Shown one piece after another: positions 1-32,760 of a DNA stretch of 64,000 nucleotides. Under the pieces are notes generated by a model, which had not been told where the DNA came from, did no database searches, and saw only the letters and a program-made list of their open reading frames with translations. The stretch lies in contig OZ076409.1 of the NCBI GenBank assembly GCA_964187785.1, positions 72,914,001 to 72,978,000 on the forward strand, written 5' to 3'. Every line of letters begins with the position of its first letter. Within the stretch, counting starts at the first letter, position 1. The translations under genes and the position numbers were made by a program. This stretch comes from Amphiscolops sp. MND2022 (Eukaryota).

Positions 1-270
1 CGCAAAAAGCACCGAACTACGGCCCTTACCTTCCCGAGCTACGCAGTATAAGGATTACATATTGGTTCCGACATTTTCATAGAGTTAAATCTTGGTAATC
101 TGTCTGGATATGCAGAAAAACCAGCACGTGCTTTTTTATACCAAGTTGCTTACAACGACAATTATTTTATATCAACGCCCCCATATTTATCAACGCCCCC
201 CGTCCGTGGGCATGCCGAGGCATGCCCTTCGACGACGTATACCAAGATATGTTCGAGCGCGTTAGCCTAG
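1..270 (+). repeat. U0, partial S-c unit (3' end only)
   Basis: Tail matches U9/U33/U37; 20-mer at 208-227, CTAG 267-270. Confidence 0.9.
208..227. promoter_or_regulatory. 20-mer GGGCATGCCGAGGCATGCCC: palindrome and candidate p53/p63/p73-family response element (representative of 40 copies)
   Basis: Decamers GGGCATGCCG + AGGCATGCCC, zero spacer, 19/20 match to (RRRCWWGYYY)x2; starts 55-75 nt upstream of every junction except those ending U2 and U34. Function inferred. Confidence 0.5.
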
Positions 271-748
271 GTGCCGGGATTTCTATTCGTTCAAGTAAGT
301 TGCGCGTGTGGGTAGGGCCCCTGGCGCGCTCTTGTGTTTGGGGGTTTCCTACTTCTAAATCACGTTCAGATTTCCGGGATCTCGTAAACTATCCATACGA
401 TTTGGCTGAAATTTGGCACACAGCCCCGTTGGAACATTCTAAGAACAAATCCCTACTGACGTTTTGCCCGCTAAACATTTTTTGTTGGTCAAAAATGCGA
501 TTTTCCGACAAAATTTTTGACTTTTTTTCATTTTACAGTCTATTTCTCGCCACAGGGTCTTGCTAGCTACCCTAAACCCTGCTAATTATAATTTGCAAAC
601 TGTCTCAGGAATGCGGTGTGAAAATTTCAGGTCAATCGGACTTAAACTCAGCGAGTTAGAGCAATTTTTTAGGTGCTTTTTTTGACATTTTTTGCATTTG
701 CCGATTTATCTCTGCCGTTTTTTGCCCAGATTTTTTTGAGACACTCTC

Positions 749-854
749 CTAAAGGCCTCCCCTGGCCGGTTTACCTCCCAGAGAAACCATTTGGCCCTAA
801 ATACGGAGTTTCAGCGTTCTAGCATTCGCGGGCGAAAAGTTGTGGGACTTAGAA
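749..854 (+). repeat. ~105-bp conserved core of all S-class units (representative)
   Basis: CTAAAGGCCTCCCCTGGCCG...AAACCATTTGGCCCTAAATACGGAGTTTCAGCGTTC...GGGCGAAAAGTTGTGGGACTTAGAA, nearly invariant across otherwise divergent S families. Confidence 0.85.
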
Positions 855-1227
855 TAAATTTTTGGAAACGCAAAATGTGTAAAGTCAACTTCAGGCCTCC
901 CAAAGTCAAAGAACTTCCACACAACTAGGATTGCAAGTGGATGCATGTGGAAAGTACTGGGATAGACGAGAAAAATGAGCTATAGAACAACTCTGTAGCT
1001 CAACCTGACGTTGACTAATGATGTTTTGAATGTGTGCTTGCTAAGGGGTCCCAAATTGAAAATTTTTAAAGAAAGTTAATATCGTCAAAAATTCATCGGA
1101 AAGCCTGCAATATACAGTAGAGCGTGTTCAATTGTAGCTGAATAATGCATCAACACCGTTCAAGGTCTTTTAAGTCAGTTTCAAAATTTTTGACACTGTA
1201 ATCTTCATCCGAGAGCACAAAACAGTT

Positions 1228-1270
1228 GAGTACATTCCATCTCCCTTTCGGGGGAGATGAGAATGTACTC
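1228..1270 (+). other. Hairpin A, bulged inverted repeat of S-class units (representative)
   Basis: GAGTACATTC-CATCTCCC / GGGAGATG-A-GAATGTACTC, one unpaired A; about 255-270 nt upstream of the unit end. Confidence 0.85.
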
Positions 1271-1534
1271 GCTAAAGAACATGTACTACAGCCAATTTTT
1301 GTTTTTATGCGAGGTCATTCTATGCTATTGCACACGAACACTTTAGTTTTGACAAACATATGTCTTTACATGCTGAATCTTACCTTACCTTTACTTTACG
1401 TTTTTGTACATACTACTACAACAACTCACCCCTAACGTCAACGTCCCATACTTTAAATCAACGCCCACCGTCCGTGGGCATGCCGAGGCATGCCCTTCGA
1501 CGACGTATGCCCTCTCAAACGCGGTAGCCGCTAG

Positions 1535-2808
1535 GTGCCGATCCCCTTTGGGATGCCTTAGTTTCGAGGGCGGTGTAGGGCCCCCTGCCCGAGTCTAGTA
1601 TAAACAACGTAAGGCGATTTTAACAGTGAGGTATCGATTTTCTAAACGAGCCATACGATTTGGCTGAAATTTTGCATACGGCTTCCTATAACAATCCTAA
1701 GAACTAATCCCTACTGGCGTTTTGCCCGGAAAAATCAAAAAGTGGGTCAAAATCTTAGTTTTTTGGTCAAAAAATGGCGTTTTTTTGGAAAAAAATTTTT
1801 TAAGAGCCAATATCTCGCTCCACAGGCCCCGGATCAAAAAGTGTACAATTGTTCGCGTGCTAGGCACTTCATGAACTGTCCGTAGACAAATTTTCGTCCA
1901 GATCGGATAAAAATTGACTGAGTAATAGAAAACTTTGAAAGTGATTTTGACGACATTTTTCGAAAACCTAGTCTATCTCTGCCGTTTTTTGCCCAGATTT
2001 TTTTCCAGGACCTCTCGTAAAGGCCTCCCCTGGCCGGTTTACCTCCCAGAAAAACCATTTGGCCCTTTTGCCGCAGTTTCAGCGTTCCAGGATTCCCCGG
2101 GTAAAAGATAAATGACTTAGAATTTTTTCAAAAATTTTTCAAAATTTTTTTTTTCAACTTCAGGCCTCCCAAAGTCAAGAAACTTCCATACAACTAGTAT
2201 TGCAAGTGAATGCATGTGGAAAGTGCTCGAATAGACGAGAAAAATGAGCTATTATAAACCTCTGTAGCTCAACCTGACGTTGACTTATGACAATTTTAGT
2301 GTGAGCTTGCTATATGGTAAAAAAATTCAAAAATTGAAAATCGAAGTTAAGTCTCATCCAAAACTCATCGGAATACGTTCAATCCATCCCAAAGCGGTTT
2401 ATTTCCAGCTATAGAGTGCAGCAACACCGTTCAAGGTCATTTGACCTATTTCAATAGGTTTTGACTCTGTCTTATCCATCCGATAGTTCGAAACAGTTGA
2501 GTACATTCCATCTCCCCTCCGTGGGAGATGGTAATGTACTCGCAAAAAGTCAAGGTCCTACCACCCTATTCTACCCGGAGTGGTGCTAGCAATGCAGTAG
2601 CGTGAGCCCCAGGTTGTTTGCAGTAGCCTTTACGTATGTTGTGACTATGTATTACAATTCTAACTCTGTTACTAAACAATAAAAATTGTTTCAATCTCAA
2701 ATTTTTTTTTCAACTTTAGTATGTCACCAATAAACATATATCCATCTTTCCTACTACAACCACCCTACCACCCGGCCCCTTGTCCACTGTTCAACCGTTC
2801 ACGTCTAG
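1535..2808 (+). repeat. U2, short unit, family S-b, lacks the 20-mer (1274 bp)
   Basis: Hairpin A 2499-2541; ends TTCACGTCTAG; near-identical to U34. Confidence 0.9.
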
Positions 2809-4083
2809 GTGCCGGTGTATTTTTACACAATGGGGGATGTTGCGCGTGTGGGGAGGGTCCCTGACGCGCTTCCGTGGTTTCGGGTCTTCTAACCTATGAT
2901 AGCGTGACACCTGACTTCGATCTCGTAAACTAGCCGTACGATTTGGCTGAAATTTGGCACACGTACCCCCCTCGACACGGTGAAGATGATTTCCTACTGA
3001 CGTTTTTCCCGCTAAACATTTTTTGTTGACCAAAATAACGGTTTTTGGGGTAAAATTTTGAATTTTTTTTAAATTTCATCTTATATCTCGCCACGGGTTT
3101 ACGCTAGCGCTTCCAAACCTTGCTGACGAAACCTTGCAAACTGTCTCAGGAATGCGGTGTGAAATTTTCAGCTCAATCGGACTCAAACTCGAGGAGATAT
3201 AGCGTTTTTCCGGAGCGGGGGGGTTTCATTTTTCTAACGGTCCAGCTTAACTTTGCCATTTTTTCGAAAATGTACTCGCCTAAAGGCCTCCCCTGGCCGG
3301 TTTGATTCCCAGCAAAACCATTTGGCCCTAAATACGGAGTTTCAGCGTTCCAGCATTCCCGGGCGAAAAGTTGTGGGACTTAGAAAAGTTCAAAAATTTT
3401 CAAAAAAATTTTTTTCCGTTATTTGGGCCCCCAAAGTGGGGGAAAAGACCCCCCAACCAGAAAAGCAAGTGAATGCATGTGGAAAGCCCTTGTTTAGACG
3501 AGAAAAATGCCGTTTAGAACGTCTTTTTATCTTAACTTGACATTGACTTTTGTCGTTTTGAAGGTGACCGTTAGATACGGAAAATTGATGTTTTGAGTAT
3601 TTATACCATCTGAAAGCCATTGAGATACAACATGTTTTGCTCAAAACGTGTTTCATTGCAGTTTCGCTGTCCATTATCACCCTTTGGTGTCTTTTCACGT
3701 AATTTTCGTTTCTATAATAACAATTTTTTTGTGTATTTATTCATTTTTTTCTCATCAAATAACTTGAAACAGTTGAGTACATTCCATCTCCCTTCCCGGG
3801 GGAGATGAGAATGTACTCGCTAAAGGTCAGGAACTACGGTCTATATCTTCCACAACACAAAAGGGATTGCAAATGGTTTCAGTTTGTTGCAGAAAACTTC
3901 TTTTTGCCCTCTGTGACTCGACAAAATGAACGTTTCTTACTTACTTTGAAACTCAGCATACCACAACTCATCTCTAACGTCAGCGCCCCCCTACTTGCAT
4001 CAACGCCCACCGTCCGTGGGCATGCCGAGGCATGCCCTTCGACGACGTATACCAAGATATACCTGGAGCGCGGTAGCCGCTAG
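2809..4083 (+). repeat. U3, short unit, family S-c, tail type c1 (1275 bp)
   Basis: Hairpin A 3775-3818, 20-mer 4018-4037. Confidence 0.9.
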
Positions 4084-5349
4084 GTGGCCGTGTCTTTTCG
4101 ACGTGCTTTTGCATCGAGGAGTGGGTAGGGCCCCGCGACGACCTAGAAGAATTGGATGCTCACCGAAACGTGCAGAATTCTACGAGATCTCATAGTTTGA
4201 GCCATACGATTTTGCTGAAATTTGGCATGTGGCCTGGAATTGGTGAGTAGGTAAAACGTGTAGGAGGTGATTTTTCCCAAATTCCACTGTGAGACGAGAT
4301 ATGGGCAAATAACGGTCCCAAAAATGGCAAAAATGCACTTTTTTCAACTTTGTCAGCCCATATCTCGTTCCCAGGTGCCCGGAGCGGGACGCGTTAAGCT
4401 GATTATAAACTCTAGGGTGTTGAGGCTGTACGGTGAACTTGGGCCCGTTCCGATCCGACTTGTAGTCTTGGAGAAATAACGGTATTTTTGGGGAACCTTT
4501 TCTAACGGTCCAGCTTATCTTTGCCATTTTTTCGAAAATGTACTCGCCTAAAGGCCTCCCCCTGGCCGAATTTACTCCCAGCAAAACCATTTGGCCCTAA
4601 ATACGGAGTTTCAGCGTTCCAGCATTCCCGGGCGAAAAGTTGTGGGACTTGGAAAATTTTCAAAAATTTTCAAAAAATTTTTTTTTCGTTTTCCGGGCCC
4701 CCAATGAAGGGGAAACGACCCCCCAACCAGTATTTTGAGTGAATTCATGTGGAAAGCCCTTGTTTTGACGAGAAAAATACCGTTTAGAACATCTTATCTT
4801 GACTCAACGTTGACTTATGACGTTTTGAATGTGATGTAAGGATGTAGGAGGCATGTGATAAGTTGATGTTTTGAGTCTTTATCTCATATGAAAGCGGTTG
4901 AGATGCAAGCTGTCCTGCTCAAAACGTCTTTCGTTGTAATTTTCCAGTGCACCAATACCCTTTGGTGTCATATAAACATACTTTTTGTCGATATATTAAC
5001 AATTTTAATGTATTTATTCCAATTTTTATTATCTTATAACTCAAAACAGTTGAGTACATTTCATCTCCCTTTCGGGGGAGATGAGAATGTACTCGCTAAA
5101 GACCTAGCGCCATGACCAAAAGTTTGAAACCCACGTTTTTTATCTTCTTACAGACTTGTTTTTGTATTTTTTCGGAATTTTTTAAAAATTAATATACTTG
5201 AAATACATTACTTGACTTTACTACTACAACCCACCTCCAACGACAACGCCCCCCTGCTTGCATCAACGCCCACCGTCCGTGGGCATGCCGAGGCATGCCC
5301 TTCGACGACGTATGCCAAATGCCCAGTGCCACGCAGTCATTATCGCTAG
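4084..5349 (+). repeat. U4, short unit, family S-d (1266 bp)
   Basis: Hairpin A 5052-5094, 20-mer 5281-5300; near-identical to U24 and U30. Confidence 0.9.
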
Positions 5350-7535
5350 GTGGAGGTTATTTTATAATAATTAAAGTGTTTTTTTCCGGAGTTTGTGGCT
5401 TTGGAAAAAACAAAAGGCGAGAAATTGGGCACTCCGGGCTGAACCGTATACACTCAATATTCGCCCAATATTTATACGATCTCGAAACCCAGCCGTACGA
5501 TTTGGCTGAAAATTTGCATGCGGCTAAAAAATCAGATTCTAAGAACTATTTCCTGCTGACATTTTTTTGAAATTTTTGTGTACGTTTCCCCCCCCCGCCC
5601 CCTAAAGGGGTCAATTTTCCCCAATTTTGCACTTATGAGTCAAATTCTCAAAACTGGTGGATCTGAGCGTATTCCCGGCGGGGACAACTTTTAACGAGCG
5701 CTCCTCAGTAGACCTTTTTGACTTTTTACTTTGGTGGTACGTTCACCCCCCGAGGAGGAAATGGCGTTTTTGTGACTTCCGGTCGAGGCTTTTTTCACCC
5801 AAAAAAAAAAATTAAGCCAATTTTGAGCAGGAAGGAGTGGATTTAAAGTGCCTGTACCCTGCTAAAAATTTGTTGGGCTTGTAGCGATATATCTCATACC
5901 AAGTCTGGTTTTCACCCCCAAACCCCCCTTGGGACCAAAATTCACCCAAACTTTTTTACCTCTGTTTGTAGTTTTTTTGCAAAATGTCGTCATTTCCATG
6001 GGTAAGGAGTTGAATTAGGGGCTCCTAATAGGGTACCAATGTTCAAGTACACTTGCAGTGCAACTGAGTGACCCTTTTGGGGCCTCTCCTGTGTTCGGCA
6101 AGGACCGGAAGTGGTGTAAACCCCCCTTTTTTGACGTTTGTTGACCTTGAGACTCGCGCTTAGATGACGTTTATGTCGCGCAAATCCTACAAACCAGTAT
6201 TAGGATGACATGCTAGCCAACTAGAGAGCACTAAGGGAAACTATACTATACCGGAAGTAACCCCCCGTGACCGGAAGTTGTCATTTTTGACCGGAAATGG
6301 TCCAAAACATAGCGTAAAAGCAGTTTTCATTGCTTTTAAAGTCAACTTATTACTTTTTTCAGTCTGCGCGAGCTTGTCTTCAGATTCGTTTTTGTTGTCC
6401 GTGCACACTACAACAAATTTACATCTGTAGAATTTTTGCTATAATATCGTCGGAGAGAGAAATAACGGGTTTCCGGAATTTTTTTCAAACATGTTTGTCT
6501 ATATCTATCATTTTTACCCAACGTTATTCAACAGTAGAACCACAGGGGTTAGTATCTGCCAAAATATATGCCTAACAAAACCACTCGTCCCATTGGTTGC
6601 AGTTTGAGCGTTCTAGCTTTGCCTGGTCACAAGTTGAGGGACTTCAAAAAGTTTCAAATTTTTTTGGAAATTTTTTTTAAACGTCACGTCTCCCAAAGTT
6701 AAGAATTTTCCACACAACTAGGATTGCAAGAGAATGCACATGGTAAGACCTATAAATGGAGAGAAAAATTCCGTTCAGAACGTCTCTTTATCGTTACGTG
6801 ACGTTAAAAGATGTTGCTTTGAATGTGAATTTGATAATGCGTCGAGAAGTAAAAGAGTGTGAATGGATCCTATGTCTCGACAAATACTCATCGCAATACA
6901 TACGATGAACCCTAATTACCCTCACTTTCAGTTGGCTAGTACATCAGCGTCTTCCAAGGACCGTTTACCTATTTGAAAATTGTCAAAATCATTATTAATA
7001 TCAGTTAGCAAGAAATGTTTGAGTACATTGTCATCTCTCCCCATCGGGTGAGATGAGAATGTTCTTGCTAAAAGTCAAGTACTACGGCCCATTTTTGTTT
7101 TATTGCGACGTTTTCTGTGCCTTAGCACAAGGATACTTTTATGTCATCTCACTTTTGTTATACAATCTGACTTGTTGTTATAAATTTCTCGTCATTACTT
7201 TACCTAAACTTACTACCATGCATCTTTAACGTCAAAGCCAAATTCATTTAGACGCCCACCATTCCGTAGGTATGCCGAGGTATGCCTTTCGAAGACGTAT
7301 GGCAAAACACAAACGGGCAAATGAAAAGGGCTGAAATTCAGAAACAGTCACAAACAATTTTGACTATTTGACCGATGGTAGGTTTTTATATGGAACTTAC
7401 ACATCACTGACATTTCAAAACATTCCAGCTGACGCCCACCCACAAACATCAACGCCCACGGTCCGTGGGCATGCCGAGGCATGCCCTTCGACGACGTATG
7501 GCAAATACCTTTTACGACGTCCCAACTTTCCCTAG
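5350..7535 (+). repeat. U5, composite unit H1 with two successive 3' ends (2186 bp)
   Basis: Degenerate hairpin A 7021-7066, decayed 20-mer 7268-7287, intact 20-mer 7467-7486; paralog of U18. Confidence 0.88.
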
Positions 7536-8806
7536 GTGGCCGCGTCTTTTAGATGGACTTTTAGCCCTGAGGCGCGGGTAGGGTCCTGCGCCGAGCTGGT
7601 GAAAATATACTACGTCCAAATCGCCCGTTCCGGAAACGATCTCAAAACTGGCCCGTACGATTTTCCTGAAAATTTGCATGTGGCCCCCAATTGGCGAGCA
7701 ATGAAAAAGTGTAGGAGGTCGTTTTTCCCAAATTCCACTGTGAGAGGAGATATATGAAAAAAACGGACCCCAAAATGACGAAATTTTCACTTTTTGACCA
7801 AAAATGTGACATTATCTCCTCAGACAAGGCTCGGAGCAAAATTTGTCAGAACCCAAACCTGCAGCAGACTGTTAGAGGACTACGCACAGTAAGTTTGAAG
7901 GAAATCGGATAATCACATGTTGAGAAATTGACGATTTTCCGACAAAATTTTTTGCATTTGCAGTCTATCTCTGCCGTTTTTTGCCCAAAATTTTTTCGAG
8001 ACCCTCTCCTAAAGACCTCCCCTGGCCGGTTTACCTCCCAAAAAAACCATTTGGCCCTAAATACGAAGTTTCAGCGTTTTAGCATTCCCCAGTGAAAAGT
8101 TATGGGACTTAGAACTTTTTCAAAAATTTTCAAAATTTTTCTAAAAAAGTTCAGGCCGCCCAAAGTGAAGAAACTTCCACACAACTAGTATTGCAAGTGA
8201 ATGCATGTGGAAAGCCCTGCACTTGACGAGAAAAATGCCGTTTAGAACGTCTTTTTATCTTGACTTGATGTTGACTTATGATCTTTTGAGTAGCGTATAA
8301 CACGTGATCACAGTAGTGAAAATCCTAATTTTCAATAATTTTCAAACAATAACGCATGAAAAGAACCTGGAAAAGGTTCCGATGGGTCAGTTGGGATGTC
8401 GGAAGCATGTGTACATTCCCGTAGTGTATAGCGGATGTATTTGGGACTTATTAGAAATTGTGATATATTTTATACAAGTCTTTGTTTCTCTTAGAATCTT
8501 ATTCAGTTGAGTACATTCCATCTCCCTCTCAGGGGAGATGTGAATGTACGTTTGCCAAATGCCTTGTAAAGCTCACAATTTTGATGGATTCAAATGACTA
8601 AACAAGTGTGATTTGCGTTTGCCGAACCACTGCGACAAAATATCCTAAATCTATAGCGAGATTGAATGGTTTTTGTCTTTAGTGTTTCTTCTTGTATAGC
8701 CGACTTCCACATCCAAATATCAACGCCCACCGTCCGTGGGCATGCCGAGGCATGCCCTTCGACGACGTATGCCAAATACCATATGCCACGCTGTCATTAT
8801 CGCTAG
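7536..8806 (+). repeat. U6, short unit, family S-e, single copy here (1271 bp)
   Basis: Head hairpin 7571-7592, hairpin A ~8509-8550, 20-mer 8738-8757. Confidence 0.88.
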
Positions 8807-10092
8807 GTGGCCGGAAATTTTTTTTTTCATCAAAATCTTTGCCATTGGGGGAGGGGCCCCGGATGGCCAGTAGTACGGCATAGCTCCCTACGGAATCCAG
8901 GCAGAAAAAACGTGATTTTGGAAACTAGCCGTCAGAATTTGCTCAAATTTTGCATACGGCTTCCTATAACAATCCTAAGAACTAATCCCTACTGGCATTT
9001 TGCCCAAAAAACGCAAAAAGTTGGTCAAAATCTTAGTTTTTTGGTCAAAAAATGGCAATTTTTCGAAAAAAAAATTTTTCAGAGACAATTACTCGTAACT
9101 GGTTCACCCAGCGCAAAAACGCCTAGCTGATTTATTGTTGGGCACTTCATGAGGAGTGCGTATACAAATTTTTGTCCAGATCGGAAAAAAAATGACTAAG
9201 TATTAGCCGGAATTCGGACGCATTTTTTCGCAAATTTTTGAAAACCTAGTCTATCTCTGCCGTTTTTTGCCCAGATTTTTTTCCAGGTCCTCTCCTAAAG
9301 GCCTCCCCTGGCCGGTTTACTTCCCAGAAAAACCATTTGGCCCTAAATACGGAGTTTCAGCGTTCTAGCATTCCCGGGCGAAAAGATGTGGGACTTAGAA
9401 AAAATTCAAAATTTTTCAAAAAAATTTTTTTCGTTTTCCGGCCCCCCAATGAAGGGGAACGACCCCCCAACGAGGATTATTGGTGAATTCACGTGGAAAG
9501 GCCTTGTTTTGTGGAGCAAATTGCCGTTTAGAGCAACTTTTTATCTTAACTTGACGTTGACCTCTGTCGTTTTGAATTTGATATTAGTATGCGTTGAGCA
9601 TGTGAAAAGTTGATGATTTCAGTTGTTCTCTCGTGTTCAAGCCATTGAGATACAAGCGGTAGTGATCAAAATGTGATTTATCGCAATTTGATGGTGCTTT
9701 TGGTGTATTTTGATTCTTTTAAATAAAAAGTTGTTCTTTTTATATTTGGTGTATTGATTCAAATGAACAAGAAACAGTTGAGTACATTTCATCTCCCCCC
9801 TTGTGGGGGAGATGAGGATGTACCCGCTAAATGACACGCACAATGGCCTAATTTTATTTTTATGCGACATTTTCTGGCTTTTGCGCAAGCCCACTAATAT
9901 TTAGACTGGTTTCCTTTTCTTTTACTCCAAAATTTTCCGTACTAACCACCTTACGCACCACCAGCTCAACGTAACATCTGTAACGTCAACGCCACACACT
10001 CTCACTAACGCCCACTGTCCGTGGGCATGCCGAGGCATGCCCTTCGACGACGTATGCCAAATAGCGCCACAGGGCGCAAACTTGTCCGCTAG
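8807..10092 (+). repeat. U7, short unit, family S-f (1286 bp)
   Basis: Hairpin A ~9780-9835, 20-mer 10023-10042; near-identical to U26. Confidence 0.9.
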
Positions 10093-10125
10093 GTGCGGGG
10101 GGGTAACCCCAACTTTTTTCTTGGA

Positions 10126-10149
10126 GGAATCGGGTAGGGTCCTGATTCC
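10126..10149 (+). other. Head hairpin H2 with conserved TAGGG(T/C) loop (representative)
   Basis: GGAATCGGG-TAGGGT-CCTGATTCC; stems covary between families. Confidence 0.8.
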
Positions 10150-11624
10150 GAGTTCAGTGCCGCCAGCTATCGTTAAAAACCCATACCTTTTAAACCCGAT
10201 CTCGGGAACTAACCACGCCCCTTCTTTAATTTTTTGGCCCCCACTCACTTTTTGAGAGTAGATCGCCCCCCACTGGGTTCCAAGTTGGGCAAAAATGGAG
10301 GTCATGGGTAACGGGGACCGTTAAGGGGTAACTCAGGGGGTAAAATTTATTTTTTGCGTCATATCTTTTCCCCCCGTGGATTTAGCGCTTCCGGTCAGCA
10401 GACAAAACCTCATGTACGTGATACGGGGCCTCCGTAGGTCCAAACAAAATTTTTCTATCATGCACCGTTACGGACTTGCCCCCCGGCCCAACCGTTATTT
10501 TACCGGAAATTGCACTTTTTGACCGGGAAGGAGTCGTCTGAGCATGGAGTCGTTTGGTAATGTTTTGTAGTGCATCTGGAGACGTGTTGGGGGACATGTA
10601 GTTTGCCGGCCCCAGTTTACCCCCCGGACGGGAAATGACCGTTATGTGAGTTTTAAAATTACCCCCCTTCAATTTTCCCCGTTATTTCCGGTGTGAAGGA
10701 GTGGGAGTAGCGCGTCGGGTGCCATATATCAAAAGTAGGTTTAGACAAGGACCAACCGGAAACTTGTGGTTTGGGACCCCCTGACCCAACCCGTTAGCCG
10801 TTATAAGGGTGATCGCCTCCTTTTTTTACTCTCAAAACCGGAAAACGGGCATTGAGGGGTAAATATCTCGTGAACGCGTGGAGCAATCGTGTCCATCACT
10901 ACTACAAGGTTTCATACCCATGATATGGTGCCTTCAGGGGGGCAAACAGATTACCGCTATCTATCACCGTTACCGACTTGGCCCCCCAGCCTAACCGCTA
11001 TGTGACCGGAAATTGCACTTTTTGAGCCCAAAGGGTCGATCCTAGCCGGGCAACGTTAGGTAACATATTGTAGTACTCATTGAGACGAGTTGGGGGATAT
11101 AGTTTCAGTCACCCCCCGTTACCCCTTGAGACCGGAAATGACCGTTATGTGAGTAGAATTGCAATTTTTATACCTTTTGAAGGGCATTTAGGTGTGGAAG
11201 GAATGGTAATAGGTGCTTGGACACTATATGATGTAATGGAGGTCGTGAAGAGAGCATTCGGAAATAACCGTTATGTTGACCCCAAAGTCCCCCTGGTACC
11301 GTTAACGACCGGAAATGGCCAAATTTTGTGTTCATAGGGTACAAATGTTTAGTATTTTATGGATAAAAGTACCTGGAAGATGTTTTAAAGGCCTCCAGAA
11401 GTGAACATAGTCATGAAACCTTGTGGGGGGTAACGGTATATAGCACCGTAAGTCCAAACCGTTGGTCACAGAATAGGTTTTTTGGTTTCAAAATGTCTTT
11501 AGGCGTAGTTATGTGGGTTGAATTGTCATAATATCAACTAATACGGACTTTTTTGGGAAATAAAATTTTTTCACATTAGTTTCAGGGACCTACAATGCTT
11601 CAGTCAACATAACCGTAACATTTT

Positions 11625-11668
11625 GATAGCCTTTCAAGTTGACCTGGTGTCAACTTGGAAGGGCTATC
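11625..11668 (+). other. Hairpin B, bulged inverted repeat of L-class units (representative)
   Basis: GATAGCCTTTCAAGTTGAC-CTGGT-GTCAACTTGGAAGGGCTATC; variants in U19 and U20 retain pairing. Confidence 0.85.
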
Positions 11669-12085
11669 CTTCTAAAATCGTTAATCAAGAGTGTTTTTGG
11701 ATAGGTATATGTTGCATTAGTACCAATTAGAGCTTCATCAACAGTTTGCCAACGGCAAAACAATGTCGTGATAATTCCGTTATAAGAATAACAGTTAACA
11801 AATTGTTTACAAAGTTGATTTTTCCCATTCAAAATGTGTCCAAATGCCACCAAATTGAATAAAATAATAAATGGTATTGACTAAAACTAACTAACATTGA
11901 AAAAGAAGCTCAACATTTTTAATAGGTCTCATTATGGAAGCTGAAACCTCACGTTTTAACTTAATTAACGTCAACGCCACATACTTTACATCAACGCCCA
12001 CCGTCTGTGGGCATGCCGAGGCATGCCCTTCGACGACGTATGCCAACTACTTTTTATATCTACACCCAATTGCGGTAGCAGCTAG

Positions 12086-13371
12086 GTGCCGGGATTTCTA
12101 TTCGATAAAGTATGTGGCGCGTGTGGGTAGGGCCCCTGGCGCGCTCTTGGGTATGGTGTTCACCAGCTAGGAAATAGGGGTCGATTTTTCGGGATCTCCT
12201 AAACTAGCCACACGATTTGGCTGAAATTTGGCACACGTACCCCCCTCGGCACGGTGAAGATGATTTCCTACTGACGTTTTTCCCGCAAAATTTTTTTTGT
12301 TGTCCAAAATAACGGTTTTTGGGGTAAAATTTTGAATTTTTTTTAAGTTTCATCTTATATCTCGCCACGGGTTTACGCTAGCGCTTCAAAACCTTGCTAA
12401 AGAAAGCTTGCAAACTGTCTCAGGAATGCGGTGTGAAATTTTCAGCTCAATCGGACTTAAACTCGGGGAGATATAGCGTTTTTCCGGAGCGGGGGGGTTT
12501 CATTTTTCTAACGGTCCAGCTTATCTTTGCCATTTTTTCGAAAATGCACTCGCCTAAAGGCCTCCCCTGGCCGGTTTTATTCCCAGCAAAACCATTTGGC
12601 CCTAAATACGGAGTTTCAGCGTTCCAGCATTCCCGGGCGAAAAGTTGTGGGACTTAGAAAAGTTCAAAAATTTTCAAAAAATTTTTTTTCCGTTTTCCGC
12701 CCTCCCCCCCTAGGGGAAAAGACCCCCCAACCAGTAATTTGAGTGAATTCATGTGGAAAGGCCATGTTTAGAGGAGAAAAATGCCGTTTAGAACGTCTTT
12801 TTATCTTGGCTCAACGTTGACTTATGACGTTTTGAAGGTGATGTTTGGAGGTGTAAAGCACGTGAATAGTAAACGTTATGAGTATTTATCTGATCTGAAA
12901 GCCATTGAGATGAATATGGTTTGCTCAAAACGTAATTCATGGCAGTTTGGCAATCAATCAACACCCTTTGTTGACATTTGACATCTTTTTTTGTTGATAT
13001 AAGAAAAAATTTCGTGTATTTATTCATTTTTTTCTCATCAAATAACTTGAAACAGTTGAGTACATTCCATCCCCCCTTCACGGGGGAGATGAGAATGTAC
13101 TCGCAAAAAGCCCCGAACTACGGCCCTTACCTTCTTGAGCTACGCAGTATAAAGATTGCATATTGGTTCCGACATTTTGATAGAGTTATATCTTGGTAAT
13201 CTGTCTGGGTATGCAGAAAAACCAGCACGTGCTTTTTTATACCAAGTTGCTCACAACGACATTTATTTTATATCAACGCCCCCATATTTATCAACGCCCC
13301 CCGTCCGTGGGCATGCCGAGGCATGCCCTTCGACGACGTATACCAAGATATGTTCGAGCGCGTTAGCCTAG
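12086..13371 (+). repeat. U9, short unit, family S-c, tail type c2 (1286 bp)
   Basis: 20-mer 13309-13328; an S unit between two L units. Confidence 0.9.
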
Positions 13372-16300
13372 GTGCGGGGGGGTAACCCCAACAAAGATAT
13401 TGGAGGATTCGGGTAGGGTCCTGAATCCGATCTTAGTACCGTCAGCTATCAGTAGAAAATTTCCCTCAAAAACCGGGATCTCGGGAACTAACCGTAGGAT
13501 TTGAAAGTTGGAGCGGCCCCCACCAGATTTTCCCGAATAGATCGCCCCCCACCGGGCTCCATACCCCGGAAAATTTTTTTTTGGCCACACGGGCGACAGT
13601 TAGGGGGTCATTTTAGGGGTAAAATTCATATTGGTCCATATAACTTTTTTCCTGTTGGTTTAAAAGTTTGGGAACCCTTCTAAAGGTTTTTCGACCATGT
13701 TGCAAGGGCTCCGGAGGTGCAAACCAAATTTTTCTATCTTGAAGCTATCTCCAAGTACCCCCCCGCTCAAACCGTTATTTTTCCGGAAACGCAGGTTTTT
13801 GACCCGGAAGGAGTCGTCTGAGCGCGGGGTCGTTAGGTGATGTTTTGGGGACGGCCTTGAGACGAAGTGGGGGACATGTAGTTTGCCAACCTCAGTTTAC
13901 CCCCCGGACGGGAAATGACCGTTATATGAGCGTGAAAAATGCCCCCCTCCACGTTTTACCGCTATTTCCGGTGTGAAGGTGTGGGAGTAGCGCGTCGGGT
14001 GCCATATATCAAAAGTAGGTTTAGACAAGGATCTATCAAAAACATGTGGTTTGGGACCGCCTGACCCAACCCGTTAGCGGGAAATGGGGCTTCCGCCTCC
14101 TTTTTTTTTGGTTAAAAACGGAAAATGGGCATTGAGGGGTAAATATCTCGTGAACGCGTGGAGCTACGGTGTCCTTCACTACTACAAGGTTTCATACCCA
14201 TGATATGGTGCCTTCAGGGGGGCAAACAGATTTCCGCTATCTATCACCGTTACGGACTTGGCCCCCCAGCCTAACCGCTATGTGACCGGAAATGTCACTT
14301 TTTGAGCCCAAAGGGTCGGTCCCAGCCAGGGAACGTTAGATAACTTTTTGTAGTACTCATTGAGACGAGTTGGGGGACATAGTTTCAGTCACCCCCCGTT
14401 ACCCCTTGTGACCGGAAATGACCGTTATGTGGGTAAAATTGGGATTTTTGTACTTTTTGAAGGGCAATTAGGTGCGGAAGGAGTGGTAATAGGTGCTTGG
14501 ACACTATATGATGGAATGGAGGACGTGAGGCGAACATTCAGACATAACCGTTATGTTGACCCTAAAGTCACCCTGGTACCGTAAACGACCGGAAATGGTC
14601 AAATTTTGTGTCTATTGGGTACAAATGTTTGGTATTTTGTAAATAAAAGTATCTATTAGGTGTTTCGACGGTCTGCAGTAGTGAACATAGTCATGAAACC
14701 TTATGGGGGGTAACGGTATATAGCACCGGAAGTCCAAAACGTTAGAGACGGGATAGGTTTTTCCGTTTTAAAATGTCTTTCGGCGTACTTTTGTCAACTA
14801 ATATGGAATATTTTTTAAAATTAAAGTTTTTCCATATAGTTTCAGAGACTCCCAAACCTCAAACAACATAACCGTTACCTTATGATAGCCTTTCAAGTTG
14901 GCCTGGTGTCAACTTGGAAGGGCTATCCTTCAAAAATCGTTGATCAAGTGTGTTTTTGGGTATGTTTGAATCATTTTAGAATCAATTAGAGCTTCAAGAA
15001 AAATTTGCCAACGACAAAAACTATGTCGTGATGATTCCGTTATTAGAGTAATAGTTAACAAAATATTGATTAAGTTGATTTTTTACATTTCAAAAGTGTC
15101 CTAAAAGCCAGAAAACCTCTTTACCAAACAAATGGTATTGATTGGATTGTATATAACAGGTAATAAAAGTTCAAATTGATTATTACGTTTTATTATGTAA
15201 GCTGAAACGTCATATTATAGTTTAATTAACGTCAACGCCACATACTTTACACCAACGCCCACCGTCTGTGGGCATGCCGAGGCATGCCCTTCGACGACGT
15301 ATACCAAACAACCTCCATATCTACACCCTAACCGCGGTAGCAGCTAGGTGCGGGGGGGTAACCCCAACAAAATTTTTGGAGGATTCGGGTAGGGTCCTGA
15401 ATCCGATCTTAGTACCGTCAGCTATCAGTAGAAAATTTCCCTCAAAAACCGGGATCTCGGGAACTAACCGTAGGATTTGAAAGTTGGAGCGGCCCCCACC
15501 AGATTTTCCCGAATAAATCGCCCCCCACCGGGCTCCATACCCCGGAAAATTTTTTTTTGGCCACACGGGCGACTGTTAGGGGGTCATTTTAGGGGTAAAT
15601 TTCATATTTGTCCATAAAACTTTTTTCCTGTTGGTTTAAAAGTTTGGGAACCCTGCTAAAGGTTTTTCGACCATGTTGCAAGGGCTCCGGAGGTGCAAAC
15701 CAAATTTTTCTATCTTGAAGCTATCTCCAAGTACCCCCCCGCTCAAACCGTTATTTTTCCGGAAACGCAGGTTTTTGACCCGGAAGGAGTCGTCTGAGCG
15801 CGGGGTCGTTAGGTGATGTTTTGGGGACGGCCTTGAGACAAAGTGGGGGACATGTAGTTTGCCGACCCCAGTTTACCCCCTGGACGGGAAATGACCGTTA
15901 TATGAGCGGAAAAAATGCCCCCCTCCACGTTTTACCGCTATTTCCGGTGTGAAGGAGTGGGAGTAGCGCGTCGGGTGTTATATAACAAAAGTAGGTTTAG
16001 ACAAGGATCTATCAAAAACATGTGGTTTGAGACCCCCTGACCCAACCCGTTAGCGGGAAATGGGGCTTCCGCCTCCTTTTTTTTCGGTTAAAAACGGAAA
16101 ATGGGCATTGAGGGGTAAATATCTCGTGAACGCGTGGAGCTACGGTGTCCTTCACTACTACAAGGTTTCATACCCATGATATGGTGCCTTCAGGGGGGCA
16201 AGCAGATTTCCGCTATCTATCACCGTTACGGACTTGGCCCCCCAGCCTAACCGCTATGTGACCGGAAATGTCACTTTTTGAGCCCAAAGGGTCGGTCCCA

Positions 16301-19300
16301 GCAAGGGAACGTTAGATAACTTTTTGTAGTACTCATTGAGACGAGTTGGGGGACATAGTTTCAGTCACCCCCCGTTACCCCTTGTGACCGGAAATGACCG
16401 TTATGTGGGTAAAATTGGGATTTTTGTACTTTTTGAAGGGCAATTAGGTGCGGAAGGAGTGGTAATAGGTGCTTGGACACTATATGATGGAATGGAGGAC
16501 GTGAGGCGAACATTCAGACATAACCGTTATGTTGACCCTAAAGTCCCCCTGGTACCGTAAACGACCGGAAATGGTCAAATTTTGTGTCTATTGGGTACAA
16601 ATGTTTGGTATTTTGTAAATAAAAGTATCTATTAGGTGTTTCGACGGTCTGCAGTAGTGAACATAGTCATGAAACCTTGTGGGGGGTAACGGTATATAGC
16701 ACCAGAAGTCCAAAACGTTAGAGACGGGATAGGTTTTTCCGTTTTAAAATGTCTTTCGGCGTACTTTTGTCAACTAATATGGAATATTTTTTAAAATTAA
16801 AGTTTTTCCATATAGTTTCAGAGACTCCCAAACCTCAAACAACATAACCGTTACCTTATGATAGCCTTTCAAGTTGGCCTGGTGTCAACTTGGAAGGGCT
16901 ATCCTTCAAAAATCGTTGATCAAGTGTGTTTTTGGGTATGTTTGAATCATTTTAGAATCAATTAGAGCTTCAAGAAATGTTTGCCAACGACAAAAACTAT
17001 GTCGTGATGATTCCGTTATTAGAGTAATAGTTAACAAAATATTGATTAAGTTGATTTTTTACATTTCAAAAGTGTCCTAAAAGCCAGAAAACCTCTTTAC
17101 CAAACTAATGATATTGATTGAATTGTATATAACAGGTAATAAAAGTTCAAATTGAATATTACGTTTCATTTTGTAAGCTGAAACGTCATATTATAGTTTA
17201 ATTAACGTCAACGCCACATACTTTACATCAACGCCCACCGTCTGTGGGCATGCCGAGGCATGCCCTTCGACGACGTATACCAAACACCCTCCATATCTAC
17301 ACCCTAACCGCGGTAGCAGCTAGGTGCGGGGGGGTAACCCCAACAAAGATATTGGAGGATTCGGGTAGGGTCCTGAATCCGATCTTAGTACCGTCAGCTA
17401 TCAGTAGAAAATTTCCCTCAAAAACCGGGATCTCGGGAACTAACCGTAGGATTTGAAAGTTGGAGCGGCCCCCACCAGATTTTCCCAAATAGATCGCCCC
17501 CCACCGGGCTCCATACCCCGGAAAATTTTTTTTTGGCCACACGGGCGACTGTTAGGGGGTCATTTTAGGGGTAAAATTCATATTGGTCCATATAACTTTT
17601 TTTCTGTTGGTTTAAAAGTTTGGGAACCCTACTAAAGGTTTTTCGACCATGTTGCAAGGGCTCCGGAGGTGCAAACCAAATTTTTCTATCTTGAAGCTAT
17701 CTCCAAGTACCCCCCCGCTCAAACCGTTATTTTTCCGGAAACGCAGGTTTTTGACCCGGAAGGAGTCGTCTGAGCGCGGGGTCGTTAGGTGATGTTTTGG
17801 GGACGGCCTTGAGACGAAGTGGGGGACATGTAGTTTGCCAACCTCAGTTTACCCCCCGGACGGGAAATGACCGTTATATGAGCGTGAAAAATGCCCCCCT
17901 CCACGTTTTACCGCTATTTCCGGTGTGAAGGAGTGGGAGTAGCGCGTCGGGTGCCATATATCAAAAGTAGGTTTAGACAAGGATCTATCAAAAACATGTG
18001 GTTTGGGACCCCCTGACCCAACCCGTTAGCGGGAAATGGGGCTTCCGCCTCCTTTTTTTACGGTTAAAAACGGAAAATGGGCATTGAGGGATAAATATCT
18101 CGTGAACGCGTGGAGCTACGGTGTCCTTCACTACTACAAGGTTTCATACCCATGATATGGTGCCTTCAGGGGGGCAAACAGATTTCCGCTATCTATCACC
18201 GTTACGGACTTGGCCCCCCAGCCTAACCGCTATGTGACCGGAAATGTCACTTTTTGAGCCCAAAGGGTCGGTCCCAGCCAGGGAACGTTAGATAACTTTT
18301 TGTAGTACTCATTGAGACGAGTTGGGGGACATAGTTTCAGTCACCCCCCGTTACCCCTTGTGACCGGAAATGACCGTTATGTGGGTAAAATTGGGATTTT
18401 TGTACTTTTTGAAGGGCAATTAGGTGCGGAAGGAGTGGTAATAGGTGCTTGGACACTATATGATGGAATGGAGGACGTGAGGCGAACATTCAGACATAAC
18501 TGTTATGTTGACCCTAAAGTCCCCCTGGTACCGTAAACGACCGGAAATGGTCAAATTTTGTGTCTATTGGGTACAAATGTTTGGTATTTTGTAAATAAAA
18601 GTATCTATTAGGTGTTTCGACGGTCTGCAGTAGTGAACATAGTCATGAAACCTTGTGGGGGGTAACGGTATATAGCACCGGAAGTCCAAAACGTTAGAGA
18701 CGGGATAGGTTTTTCCGTTTTAAAATGTCTTTCGGCGTACTTTTGTCAACTAATATGGAATATTTTTTAAAATTAAAGTTTTTCCATATAGTTTCAGAGA
18801 CTCCCAAACCTCAAACAACATAACCGTTACCTTATGATAGCCTTTCAAGTTGGCCTGGTGTCAACTTGGAAGGGCTATCCTTCAAAAATCGTTGATCAAG
18901 TGTGTTTTTGGGTATGTTTGAATCATTTTAGAATCAATTAGAGCTTCAAGAAATGTTTGCCAACGACAAAAACTATGTCGTGATGATTCCGTTATTAGAG
19001 TAATAGTTAACAAAATATTGATTAAGTTGATTTTTTACATTTCAAAAGTGTCCTAAAAGCCAGAAAACCTCTTTACCAAACAAATGGTATTGATTGGATT
19101 GTATATAACAGGTAATAAAAGTTCAAATTGATTATTACGTTTTATTATGTAAGCTGAAACGTCATATTATAGTTTAATTAACGTCAACGCCACATACTTT
19201 ACACCAACGCCCACCGTCTGTGGGCATGCCGAGGCATGCCCTTCGACGACGTATACCAAATACATTTCATATCTACACCCACCCGCGGTAGCAGCTAGGT

Positions 19301-22300
19301 GCGGGGGGGTAACCCCAACAAAGATATTGGAGGATTCGGGTAGGGTCCTGAATCCGATCTTAGTACCGTCAGCTATCAGTAGAAAATTTCCCTCAAAAAC
19401 CGGGATCTCGGGAACTAACCGTAGGATTTGAAAGTTGGAGCGGCCCCCACCAGATTTTCCCGAATAGATCGCCCCCCACCGGGCTCCATACCCCGGAAAA
19501 TTTTTTTTTGGCCACACGGGCGACAGTTAGGGGGTCATTTTAGGGGTAAAATTCATATTGGTCCATATAACTTTTTTTCTGTTGGTTTAAAAGTTTGGGA
19601 ACCCTTCTAAAGGTTTTTCGACCATGTTGCAAGGGCTCCGGAGGTGCAAACCAAATTTTTCTATCTTGAAGCTATCTCCAAGTACCCCCCCGCTCAAACC
19701 GTTGTTTTTCCGGAAACGCAGGTTTTTGACCCGGAAGGAGTCGTCTGAGCGCGGGGTCGTTAGGTGATGTTTTGGGGACGGCCTTGAGACGAAGTGGGGG
19801 ACATGTAGTTTGCCAACCTCAGTTTACCCCCCGGACGGGAAATGACCGTTATATCAGCGTGAAAAATGCCCCCCTCCACGTTTTACCGCTATTTCCGGTG
19901 TGAAGGAGTGGGAGTAGCTCGTCGGGTGCCATATATCAAAAGTAGGTTCAGACAAGGACCTATCGGAAACATGTGGTTTGGGACCCCCTGACCCAACCCG
20001 TTAGCGGGAAATGGGGCTTCCGCCTCCTTTTTTTTCGGTTAAAAACGGAAAATGGGCATTGAGGGGTAAATATCTCGTGAACGCGTGGAGCTACGGTGTC
20101 CTTCACTACTACAAGGTTTCATACCCATGATATGGTGCCTTCAGGGGGGCAAACAGATTTCCGCTATCTATCACCGTTACGGACTTGGCCCCCCAGCCTA
20201 ACCGCTATGTGACCGGAAATGTCATTTTTTGAGCCCAAAGGGTCGGTCCCAGCCAGGGAACGTTAGATAACTTTTTGTAGTACTCATTGAGACGAGTTGG
20301 GGGACATAGTTTCAGTCAACCCCCGTTACCCCTTGTGACCGGAAATGACCGTTATGTGGGTAAAATTGGGATTTTTGTACTTTTTGAAGGGCAATTAGGT
20401 GCGGAAGGAGTGGTAATAGTTGCTTGGACACTATATGATGGAAGGGAGGACGTGAGGCGAACATTCGGACATAACCGTTATGTTGACCCTAAAGTCCCCC
20501 TGGTACCGTAAACGACCGGAAATGGTCAAATTTTGTGTCTATTGGGTACAAATGTTTGGTATTTTGTAAATAAAAGTATCTATTAGGTGTTTCGACGGTC
20601 TGCAGTAGTGAACATAGTCATGAAACCTTGTCGGGGGGTAACGGTATATAGCACCGGAAGTCCAAACCGTTAGAGACGGGATAGGTTTTTTCGTTTTAAA
20701 ATGTCTTTCGGCGTACTTTTGTCAACTAATATGGAATATTTTTTAAAATTAAAGTTTTTCCATATAGTTTCAGAGACTCCCAAACCTCAAACAACATAAC
20801 CGTTACCTTATGATAGCCTTTCAAGTTGGCCTGGTGTCAACTTGGAAGGGCTATCCTTCAAAAATCGTTGATCAAGTGTGTTTTTGGGTATGTTTGAATC
20901 ATTTTAGAATCAATTAGAGCTTCAAGAAAAATTTGCCAACGACAAAAACTATGTCGTGATGATTCCGTTATTAGAGTAATAGTTAACAAAATGTTGATAA
21001 AGTTGATTTTGTACATTTCAAATGTGTCCTTTATGCCAGAAAACCTTTTTACCAAACTAATGATATTGATTGAATTGTATATAACAGGTAATAAAAGTTC
21101 AAATTGAATATTACGTTTCATTTTGTAAGCTGAAACGTGATATTATAGTTTAATTAACGTCAACGCCACATACTTTACATCAACGCCCACCGTCTGTGGG
21201 CATGCCGAGGCATGCCCTTCGACGACGTATACCAAACACCCTCCATATCTACACCCTAACCGCGGTAGCAGCTAGGTGCGGGGGGGGTAACCCCAACAAA
21301 GATATTGGAGGATTCGGGTAGGGTCCTGAATCCGATCTTAGTACCGCCAGCTATCAGTAGAAAATTTCCCTCAAAAACCGGGATCTCGGGAACTAACCGT
21401 AGGATTTGAAAGTTGGAGCGGCCCCCACCAGATTTTCCCGAATAGATCGCCCCCCACCGGGCTCCATACCCCGGAAAATTTTTTTTTGGCCACACGGGCG
21501 ACAGTTAGGGGGTCATTTTAGGGGTAAAATTCATATTGGTCCATATAACTTTTTTCCTGTTGGTTTAAAAGTTTGGGAACCCTGCTAAAGGTTTTTCGAC
21601 CATGTTGCAAGGGCTCCGGAGGTGCAAACCAAATTTTTCTATCTTGAAGCTATCTCCAAGTACCCCCCCGCTCAAACCGTTATTTTTCCGGAAACGCAGG
21701 TTTTTGACCCGGAAGGAGTCGTCTGAGCGCGGGGTCGTTAGGTGATGTTTTGGGGACGGCCTTGAGACAAAGTGGGGGACAAGTAGTTTGCCAACCTCAA
21801 TTTACCCCCCGGACGGGAAATGACCGTTATATGAGCGTGAAAAATGCCCCCCTCCACGTTTTACCGCTATTTCCGGTGTGAAGGTGTGGGAGTAGCGCGT
21901 CGGGTGCCATATATCAAAAGTAGGTTTAGACAAGGATCTATCAAAAACATGTGGTTTGGGACCCCCTGACCCAACCCGTTAGCGGGAAATGGGGCTTCCG
22001 CCTCCTTTTTTTTCGGTTAAAAACGGAAAATGGGCATTGAGGGGTAAATATCTCGTGAACGCGTGGAGCTACGGTGTCCTTCACTACTACAAGGTTTCAT
22101 ACCCATGATATGGTGCCTTCAGGGGGGCAAACAGATTTCCGCTATCTATCACCGTTACGGACTTGGCCCCCCAGCCTAACCGCTATGTGACCGGAAATGT
22201 CACTTTTTGAGCCCAAAGGGTCGGTCCCAGCCAGGGAACGTTAGATAACTTTTTGTAGTACTCATTGAGACGAGTTGGGGGACATAGTTTCAGTCACCCC

Positions 22301-31370: not shown

Positions 31371-32760
31371 GTGGTTGGGGCGGTCCCCAGAACGCACAAG
31401 GAGGCGCGGGGAGGGTCCTGCGCCGACGTAGAATAATTTCATATAATACTAGTATCCTACATGGGTGTTTTAGAGGCGATTTTGGAATCTAACCGTAGGA
31501 TTTGGATAATTTTTTGCATGCGGCCATAACTCGAAATTCTAAGAACTTTTTCCTTCTGTCATTTTCCCCGCAAATTGTTTTTTGTTGACTTATGGCCGAA
31601 AAACCGGAAATAACGTCCTTTTTAGACGTTATATCCGAAGTGTCGTCATAACTTTTTTCCAGGGCATGCTAGCGTTCTCGTTCACTTTTACACTTAGTTG
31701 CAGCATCTCAAAATACAACTGGTGGAAAATTTTGGTTGCATTCGGATCACCCCCCACCGAGATAGAAGGGTTCCCCCCTCCAGTTTTACCCCCCAAATTT
31801 GCAAAATAGCCAATTTTGAGCATGAAGCCGAGGATTTAGCGTACCCGCACCCCCCTGATGTTTTGTTGTACGTATTGGGGTCAATCTGATGACATGTGTG
31901 GTTTTCACCCCCAACCCCCCCTTGGACCGGAAATGACACTTTTTTGTGTTTTTTGGCAGAATTTAGCCTTTTTCATTATTAGAAAGTCGTTTTAGGGACT
32001 CCTAGCAGGATATCGAAATTGAAATACAACCTGATCACAACCCAGTGACAACATGTTGGCCACTTGGAGGTATCATCATGACCGGAAGTGGGGTCAACCC
32101 CCCTTTTTGTGACCGCTTTTTGACCTTGTGCACCAAAAATGCCAACATCTTGAGGCCTAATGAGGCATTCAAATCTGTACAAAGATAAAATGTTAGACAA
32201 CCGAAGTCCCGGAAGATCTTTAGCATATACCGGAAATTACCCCCCATGACCGGAAGTTACCCAATGTGACCGGAAATGGTCCAAAAATTAATGTAAAGTT
32301 GAATTTTTCACTATTTCAAGACCACTTAATTGAAACTTTTCAATCTCAAAACTAGCGTACTGGCTTGTTTTGCTGAATTTATGGAAATTGATGAGCTCTA
32401 TTGCCCCCGATAGCCTTCGAAGTTGACCTTGCGTCAACTTTGGAGGCTATCGATAAAGAAAAATGAACAACAAAGTACATTGTTGCTCTCGTTTTTTTCC
32501 CGTTGTTTTTCCTCAAACATTCTTGAGACATATACATGGCCGTTAGTTGAAATCAATATTTAGCCCATGTTATAGCTGGAGCAGCGAAACGTTACACAGA
32601 CTAGTGTGGTTTTGAAATCACACTATTTAAATTAACAACTGACCGTCTTAGTCAACTCCACACATTCATACCAACGCCCACCGTCTGTGGGCATGCCGAG
32701 GCATGCCCTTCGACGACGTATGACGAATCCACTCCAACGACACCCGCAGTCCTCAGCTAG
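31371..32760 (+). repeat. U19, divergent hairpin-B unit L-d (1390 bp)
   Basis: Hairpin B variant 32409-32451, 20-mer 32689-32708; body partly homologous to the 5' half of U5/U18. Confidence 0.88.

Follow-up and report, generated by a model that had tools for sequence, protein, structure and literature searches.

The closest described relatives of the elements analysed here are the Helitron-like elements (HLEs), of which HLE1 includes Helraiser and HLE2 includes Helitron2, Helentron, FoHeli, and DINE/HINE. Target choice and left-end recognition of Helitrons are poorly known, and the described targets are mostly dinucleotides. According to the available text on Helraiser, this element needs its left end, and mutants of the right end stop at CTTG (PMC4778049). 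The available part of the HELIANO survey states that the left ends of HLEs are usually more diverse, that unclassified clusters exist, and that HelenSM92 has a GIY-YIG domain but also TIRs and TT sites (PMC11417382). The same text, together with a second source available in part, describes 3' ends of FoHeli1/2 that resemble their own target and reversed ORFs in HLE2 (PMC11417382, PMC5148889). As far as the accessible sections of the reports on other HUH enzymes go, IS91 carries out rolling-circle transposition beside a tetranucleotide target (PMC10288648), and TrwC integrates into a copy of its own origin (PMC5714925).

A head-to-tail cassette array

The window, that is, the whole 64,000-nt stretch that was analysed (C1:72914001-72978000 of the 1.07-Gb Amphiscolops genome), is an unbroken + strand array of 42 units (U) arranged head-to-tail. 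Units of ~1.27, 1.39, 1.98, 2.0, and 2.19 kb follow one another in mixed order, and their 42 junctions read CTAG^GTG in 41 cases and CTGG^GTG in one (at 62256). No ORF longer than 163 aa was found in the window, and its tRNA scan was blank. The array was sampled further at C1 70.54, 71.6, and 72.6-76.46 Mb. A tail motif was counted 5,059 times genome-wide, which gives at least 5,059 copies, and its places are mostly in same-strand clusters among the matches listed (the first 100 of the 5,059). Most copies stand in arrays with random neighbour order. The features of the window to which we refer, including the head hairpins H1 and H2, are as follows.

1..64000, + strand: non-autonomous Helitron-like cassettes, forming a section of a head-to-tail array of several megabases
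208..227, + strand: tail hairpin of the cassette preceding U1, 38-60 nt before the 3' end
267..270, + strand: 3'-terminal CTAG of the upstream cassette (from solo and array-end flanks)
271..296, + strand: 5' end of U1 (GTG...), with the H1 region unfolded in this head type
297..334, + strand: H2 of U1, conserved core at 310-320
1541..1554, + strand: H1 of U2, 5-bp stem
2815..2828, + strand: H1 of U3
5377..5412, + strand: unrelated long hairpin in place of H2 in U5 (likewise in U18, head at 29180)
7251..7310, + strand: degenerate older tail within U5, ~230 nt before the present end
7571..7592, + strand: H2 of U6, with a G·T pair and GA on both arms at the stem base
8841..8867, + strand: H2 of U7
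10126..10149, + strand: H2 of U8
31376..31389, + strand: H1 of U19
32766..32819, + strand: H1 and H2 of U20
62256..62327, + strand: head with the variant junction CTGG^GTG, which escapes notice when only CTAG is counted

The tail hairpin was present in 210 of 251 units and missing in other tail classes, including that of the family-A autonomous elements (41/251). The block around it (189-245 and similar tails) is nearly invariant over unrelated unit families and has repeated CAACGCCC-like motifs upstream, while the final ~30 nt change fast; the block is possibly a promoter or pause element. The older tail within U5 fits growth by extension at the 3' end. Several other structural observations were made. 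Another long hairpin (1225-1272 and equivalents), whose arms are conserved while its loop varies, lies ~280-320 nt before the end in most 1.27-kb and 2.19-kb units, its arm motif occurring at 27 places. U23 (38765-40436) is chimeric, with 1,392 nt of a 2-kb family followed by the final 275 nt of a 1.27-kb family. Inverted cassette blocks occur in or beside + strand arrays at L017 (C1:76050001-76060000) and L178, and L185 and L186 are ~700-nt solo derivatives of a 2-kb family in which head and tail are kept.

Ends, target, and reassortment of the cassettes

To the 5' side, CT occupied -4/-3 in all 13 heads that had been picked for a non-A base at -2, a choice that leaves these places unforced. 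Among 10 non-junction heads picked otherwise, CTNG preceded 7 and TTAG, CTCA, and ATAT the others. The 14 unforced 3' flanks after a terminal CTNG, a count that leaves out 4 pattern-forced flanks, had G (9), A (3), or T (2) at +1 and T at +2 in 12. At 244 junctions the 3' ends were CTAG (230), CTGG (10), CTCG (2), and CTTG (2). The pre-insertion homologue of one insertion inside a unit reads CTGG^GTA, and target-site duplication was absent from this insertion as well as from the full-length solos. According to these data, the element runs 5'-GTG...CTNG-3' and enters CTNG^[G/A/T]T sites without duplicating them, which makes the joint of its own tail and head an ideal target. For U1, the nick and insertion point would fall between 270 and 271. 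Since the solo and internal insertion sites carry no H2, H2 is dispensable in the target. The junctions of a circle would be the same as those of the array.

Solos lacking their 5' part would speak for the tail as origin. This idea was rejected, as most solos are full length with variant loops and two are too decayed to call. A short-pattern count (5,393 vs 4,510 in the control) was uninformative as a measure of occupancy.

Within a unit, the type of the head is linked to that of the tail (MI 4.48 vs 3.26±0.03), whereas a tail and the next head are independent after correction for locality (3.392 vs 3.389, p=0.46); the 167 junctions comprised 146 types. This indicates that cassettes reassort exactly at the junction, where the 7 shared bases would be too few for homologous exchange. 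Homogeneous runs (U10-U17), the existence of solos, and the tandem Helitrons of other genomes described in the available part of PMC5148889 would each suit insertion at any CTNG^GT, with arrays arising secondarily through concatemers, unequal crossing-over, and loss of dispersed copies, and with H2 as an ordinary origin signal. We consider this unlikely, because neighbours are independent across the 7-nt junction, adjacent U10-U17 copies are not mutual closest relatives, lineages only ~30% identical are interleaved, 17 internal CTNGGT sites in the window are unused against 42 junctions, and internal insertions at such sites were found at one locus only among 251 units. Arrays formed without true targeting can be compatible with an origin role of H2. 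Under the targeting of junctions that we favour, solo-copy removal and local duplication could also inflate the arrays.

Autonomous elements and their proteins

A genome search with PF14214 detected many ORFs of ~2,370 aa inside arrays. Their product, RepHel, scored above the cut-off for both PF14214 and PF05970; its HUH and two-Tyr residues (H1125, H1127, Y1296, and Y1300) were invariant in 43 sequences, and its helicase is of the Pif1 type with a match to Helraiser (7lcc). In several lineages RepHel ends in a C-terminal GIY-YIG domain, the best solved relatives of which are SLX1. This domain was above the Pfam cut-off in 4 of 7 scanned proteins and looks decayed in some lineages. RepHel with an N-terminal OTU-like protease domain was observed at L046:1890-9698 (- strand) and in P0015, P0018, and P0056.

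In each of the first ten RepHel loci, the unit opens with an H2 head at a CTNG^GTG junction, is 12-17 kb long, and ends in CTAG or CTGG, after which another head follows. These ten loci represent four lineages that are only ~30% identical to one another, so that the same H2 head is found on gene-less cassettes and on at least four such RepHel lineages. In a second ten loci from other lineages, a head was the nearest landmark 1-12 kb upstream in nine, at the longer distances as the putative start of the element; the head at L140 had a non-CTNG flank, and no head was found within 16 kb upstream at L152. In the Amphiscolops genome the H2 head is on the sense strand, ~1 kb ahead of the ORF. All 35 RepHel matches in C1:70.5-76.5 Mb, among the 150 matches listed, are on the + strand. 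Over their initial ~770-800 bp, the gene-less 1.27-kb units share homology with the beginning of the autonomous lineages A, B, and D. The gene-less cassettes are non-autonomous copies of 12-17-kb Helitron-like elements, with which they have the head in common.

A second ORF, ORF2, is conserved even in metagenomic relatives. By sequence it had no Pfam or PDB match, and its single-sequence fold reached a pLDDT of 33. The ORF2 model (pLDDT 84.7) had RPA and other OB-fold ssDNA binders as top matches (Foldseek E 8e-7; VIA Z 9.5, rmsd 3.0, 112 aligned). From this model, ORF2 is predicted to be an RPA-like protein.

Cassette arrays with a short common core and no duplication are what would be expected of Integron- or Crypton-like cassettes moved by a tyrosine recombinase on folded attC-like sites. 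We give this explanation next to no chance and rejected it, because PF00589 gave just 4 weak matches in the genome and none in the sampled arrays, and because the RepHel ORFs have the ends of the cassettes. Three tyrosine-recombinase-like stretches, 993 nt apart, were seen in one 1,055-aa open frame at C3:2083091-2085292.

The head hairpins

A sequence-only reading of this DNA had proposed that two hairpins open every cassette. A covariance model of H2 (36 rows, 12 of them from the window itself) found this hairpin at 40 of the 42 heads in the window; U5 and U18 have no H2, and H1 proved weak. The same reading had placed an unrelated hairpin at the H2 position of U5 and U18, which was found (5377-5412). 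The H2 core is GGG-[T/G]AGGG[T/C]-CC, and its exact form occurs 36 times in the window, always on the + strand, with 0.11 occurrences expected. H1 was not borne out in the segment that had been singled out (271-330), because this part of the head 271-335 remained unfolded under DNA energies; U1-type heads account for 12 of the 42. The hairpins quoted in the earlier reading were otherwise all in place (H1 of U2, U3, U5 at 5357, U19, and U20, and five H2), except that H1 of U6 (at 7543) has a loop of 3 nt, one T short of that quoted. Among 32 head types, H1 reached p<0.05 in 6 and H2 in 18. Summed over 23 types, the H1 excess was 106.8 vs 81.3±4.5 (maximum 97.2 in 300 shuffles).

Column-wise covariation in a MAFFT alignment of H2 gave a score of 0.215 vs 0.156±0.018 (1/500). 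This alignment pairs only 41% of the outer-stem cells and its bulges misalign. Since sequence-only alignment misregisters the bulged outer stem, alignment-free tests were used. When arms were swapped among 16 stem types more than 4 edits apart (100,000 permutations), own arms gave -8.0 and swapped arms -5.0 kcal/mol (p~1e-5 with DNA or RNA energies), and the own partner was the best for 7 of the 16. When 149 distinct heads were joined in a minimum spanning tree (116 of its 148 edges used), 15 pair-keeping double changes were counted vs 6.8±2.5 (maximum 17 in 2,000 random scatterings). Compensatory changes stood against single pair-breaking changes at 7 vs 53 in H1 and 8 vs 29 in H2, where 2 of the 8 come from one doubtful edge or alignment. 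A clean compensatory swap from A-T to T-A distinguishes the H2 of U8 from that of U10 (13405-13428). The covariation tests and the pair-breaking counts indicate that H2 is constrained and H1 loosely so. The proposal that selection acts on the structure is thus supported for H2 by the arm-swap and spanning-tree tests, and weakly for H1.

H2 was more stable on the + strand in 25 and on the - strand in 2 of 32 head types. In 36 heads, which are partly non-independent, tandem GA/GA at the base of the H2 stem was seen in 15 on the + strand and 1 on the - strand, and the outer core pair was G·T in 9 and A·C in 0. Tandem GA pairs are stable in DNA. The tandem G·A and G·T pairs together with the higher + stability indicate that the fold forms on the + strand.

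The strand of the fold bears on the polarity of transposition. With the opposite polarity, the - strand would be peeled, the tail would be the origin, the head hairpins would be the terminator before the 3' end, and the ORF would be reversed. We regard this as rather improbable, because the tandem GA and G·T pairs belong to the + strand, the tail end looks extensible (as the older tail of U5 illustrates), and the target is most constrained at CTNG, on the 5' side of the cut in the + strand, like the CTRR ends of Helitrons in the available text of PMC4778049. That text also gives a hairpin a few bases before the cut as the usual terminator layout of Helitrons, which the reversed polarity would match; 5' stem-loops as well as reversed ORFs, the latter in some elements of FoHeli and Paramecium, appear in the accessible parts of PMC13085455, PMC11417382, and PMC5148889, and many tails have no hairpin able to terminate on the + strand. 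The left-end diversity stated in the HELIANO text would likewise fit the tail, not the head, as origin.

Relatives and phylogeny

The group to which RepHel belongs comprised 69 proteins, and 377 clusters, mostly unnamed, at E<=1e-10. Named members come from Styela clava (a tunicate) and Myxine glutinosa (a hagfish), and many others are metagenomic. A profile search with A1 added just 5 proteins, and no relative was found in the viral contigs searched. P0100 and P0102 (cluster of P0068) carry the NCBI label 'bacterium', which may reflect either binned DNA of eukaryotic origin or a branch in prokaryotes. In a tree of Rep plus helicase, built without an outgroup and leaving out 4 short or mis-parsed ORFs of the own genome and some redundant rows, 19 members formed a clade (0.97) apart from 15 HLE2 (0.98) and 2 HLE1 sequences, both of the latter from the Amphiscolops genome. 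The distance from the group to HLE1/HLE2 was 5.2, and that from HLE1 to HLE2 3.8. The helicase-only tree nests the group in HLE2, and the Rep-only support was 0.25.

In 63 metagenome loci, the H2 model gave 5 matches, of which 4 are independent and each is individually weak (E 0.055-4.7). All lie within 250 nt of a contig end, such ends making up ~8% of the bases. For three of the four heads the two-hairpin fold surpasses most shuffles (z -2.1 to -2.6), and for that of L134 it is no better than shuffles (z +1.16). Two of the hairpins are upstream on the strand of the ORF; the other two (L105 and L118) are downstream on the opposite strand, their membership of the same element being assumed. 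No terminal overlap indicative of tandem arrays was found in the metagenomic loci. Extra ORFs of 923-1,140 aa without a Pfam match lie beside RepHel at L105:3408-6176 and L134:2615-6034.

The sequence-only reading had left the choice between an ssDNA recognition end and a structured RNA. An RNA starting near the junction (a 5' leader, a small RNA, or a silencing signal) might use the hairpins while the transposase reads a short sequence only. The G·T and tandem GA pairs on the + strand are just as compatible with RNA, the significance of the arm-swap test holds for RNA energies as for DNA, and the head precedes the ORF in the sense direction. We nevertheless see only a slim chance for an RNA role, because the hairpins of L105 and L118 lie downstream of the ORF on the opposite strand, the distance to the DNA insertion point is fixed across thousands of gene-less copies, and Rfam has no matching family (0 matches at the gathering score in the 64-kb window, with two chance-level matches in 1-16000). 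The ssDNA recognition end is favoured, as the same head starts the autonomous elements that encode the HUH protein RepHel.

Proposed mechanism

Taken together, the H2 head is the left end of a Helitron-like element and, as we think likely, the ssDNA signal that RepHel binds beside its cut site, so that new copies would favour CTNG^GTG joints and mixed arrays would result. RepHel would nick the + strand after CTNG and remain attached to the 5' G; its helicase would peel the + strand, which the RPA-like ORF2 would coat. The site bound by RepHel would be H2 of the displaced + strand, at a distance of ~40-50 nt from the nick. In this scheme, the loop and 3-bp core of H2 would be the binding determinant, and H1 may be a minor spacer or structure. 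Copying would stop at the next CTNG^, and in an array a head again comes next. A circle closed at CTAG^GTG would integrate where the sequence resembles the junction, preferably in front of a head. As a guess, the GIY-YIG domain might cut a branched intermediate. The site CTTG^AT resembles the nick sites of phiX174, pC194, and IS91. The diversity of tails, together with the 41 of 251 units without a tail hairpin, agrees with an essential left end and a flexible right end as given for Helraiser in the available text. Counter-evidence comes from the U5 and U18 heads, which sit in arrays without H2.

A wider proposal, which we hold tentatively and rate at a little under an even chance, is that these elements form a further widespread clade (RepHel-GIY-YIG with an RPA-like protein) in which one conserved ssDNA hairpin is origin, terminator, and landing pad, and in which the transposase integrates single strands site-specifically and so builds megabase arrays of mixed cassettes, similar to integrons, in an animal genome. 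A direct test is possible, as numerous intact transposases and natural substrates in the thousands exist and both target and junction are exactly defined. If junction targeting is true, it shows how a DNA transposon can avoid genes by stacking on itself and thereby create repeat blocks of several megabases, distinct from satellites and from nested junk alike; a eukaryotic HUH enzyme that places cassettes of 1-17 kb at a short defined site without target duplication would also become available.

Comparison with known systems

An HUH Rep with two Tyr followed by a Pif1-type helicase, the absence of target-site duplication, and gene-less copies with the termini of the autonomous elements mark these elements as Helitron-like. 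No description of a GIY-YIG RepHel clade with self-targeted CTNG^GT arrays was found in the main texts of openly accessible papers, and resources such as Repbase or Dfam may list the family by a different name.

With HLE1 and Helraiser the elements share a RepHel protein (HUH, two Tyr, Pif1), a 3' CTAG that conforms to the CTRR of HLE1, the lack of duplication, and a downstream RPA-like gene, as well as an invariant left end and a flexible right end so far as the available Helraiser text describes them. They differ from HLE1 in starting with GTG instead of TC, in the target CTNG^[G/A/T]T instead of A^T, in a tail hairpin 38-60 nt from the 3' end instead of one at 10-12 nt, and in the conserved left-end hairpin and the GIY-YIG fusion. 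The transposase has diverged far, with about 50-70 BLAST bits as against 280-1450 between group members, and did not group with the two HLE1 sequences, both from Amphiscolops, in the tree.

HLE2 resembles the present elements in having hairpins near the 5' end, a long single ORF, and in some cases OTU. The asymmetric terminal inverted repeats of HLE2 (12-16 nt) were not found, as the longest exact inverted match was 4-9 nt (mean 5.56 vs 5.60 in swapped pairs). DUF6570 was detected in 0 of 7 group proteins vs 4 of 4 HLE2 proteins of the same genome, and the elements have neither an AP endonuclease nor a T^T or T^C target. HelenSM92, an HLE2 with a GIY-YIG domain in common, is set apart by the TIRs and TT sites in the available part of its description.

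IS91 and TrwC offer analogies in HUH transposition at a tetranucleotide and in integration into a copy of the own origin, respectively. Both are prokaryotic, IS91 is without a fused helicase, and the available texts describe no megabase mixed arrays. The third-clade Helitrons of Paramecium, as the accessible part of PMC13085455 presents them, are set apart by targeting telomeric repeats rather than their own junctions, and a GIY-YIG fusion is not among the features described there. They resemble the present elements in being a divergent branch of the HLEs that keeps a strict orientation, apparently has a sequence target, and has accumulated in a single compartment together with numerous derivatives that lack genes. 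The element described here is a Helitron-like element that stands apart from HLE1 in the TC start, the A^T target, and the 3' hairpin, and from HLE2 in the TIRs, the T^T target, and DUF6570.
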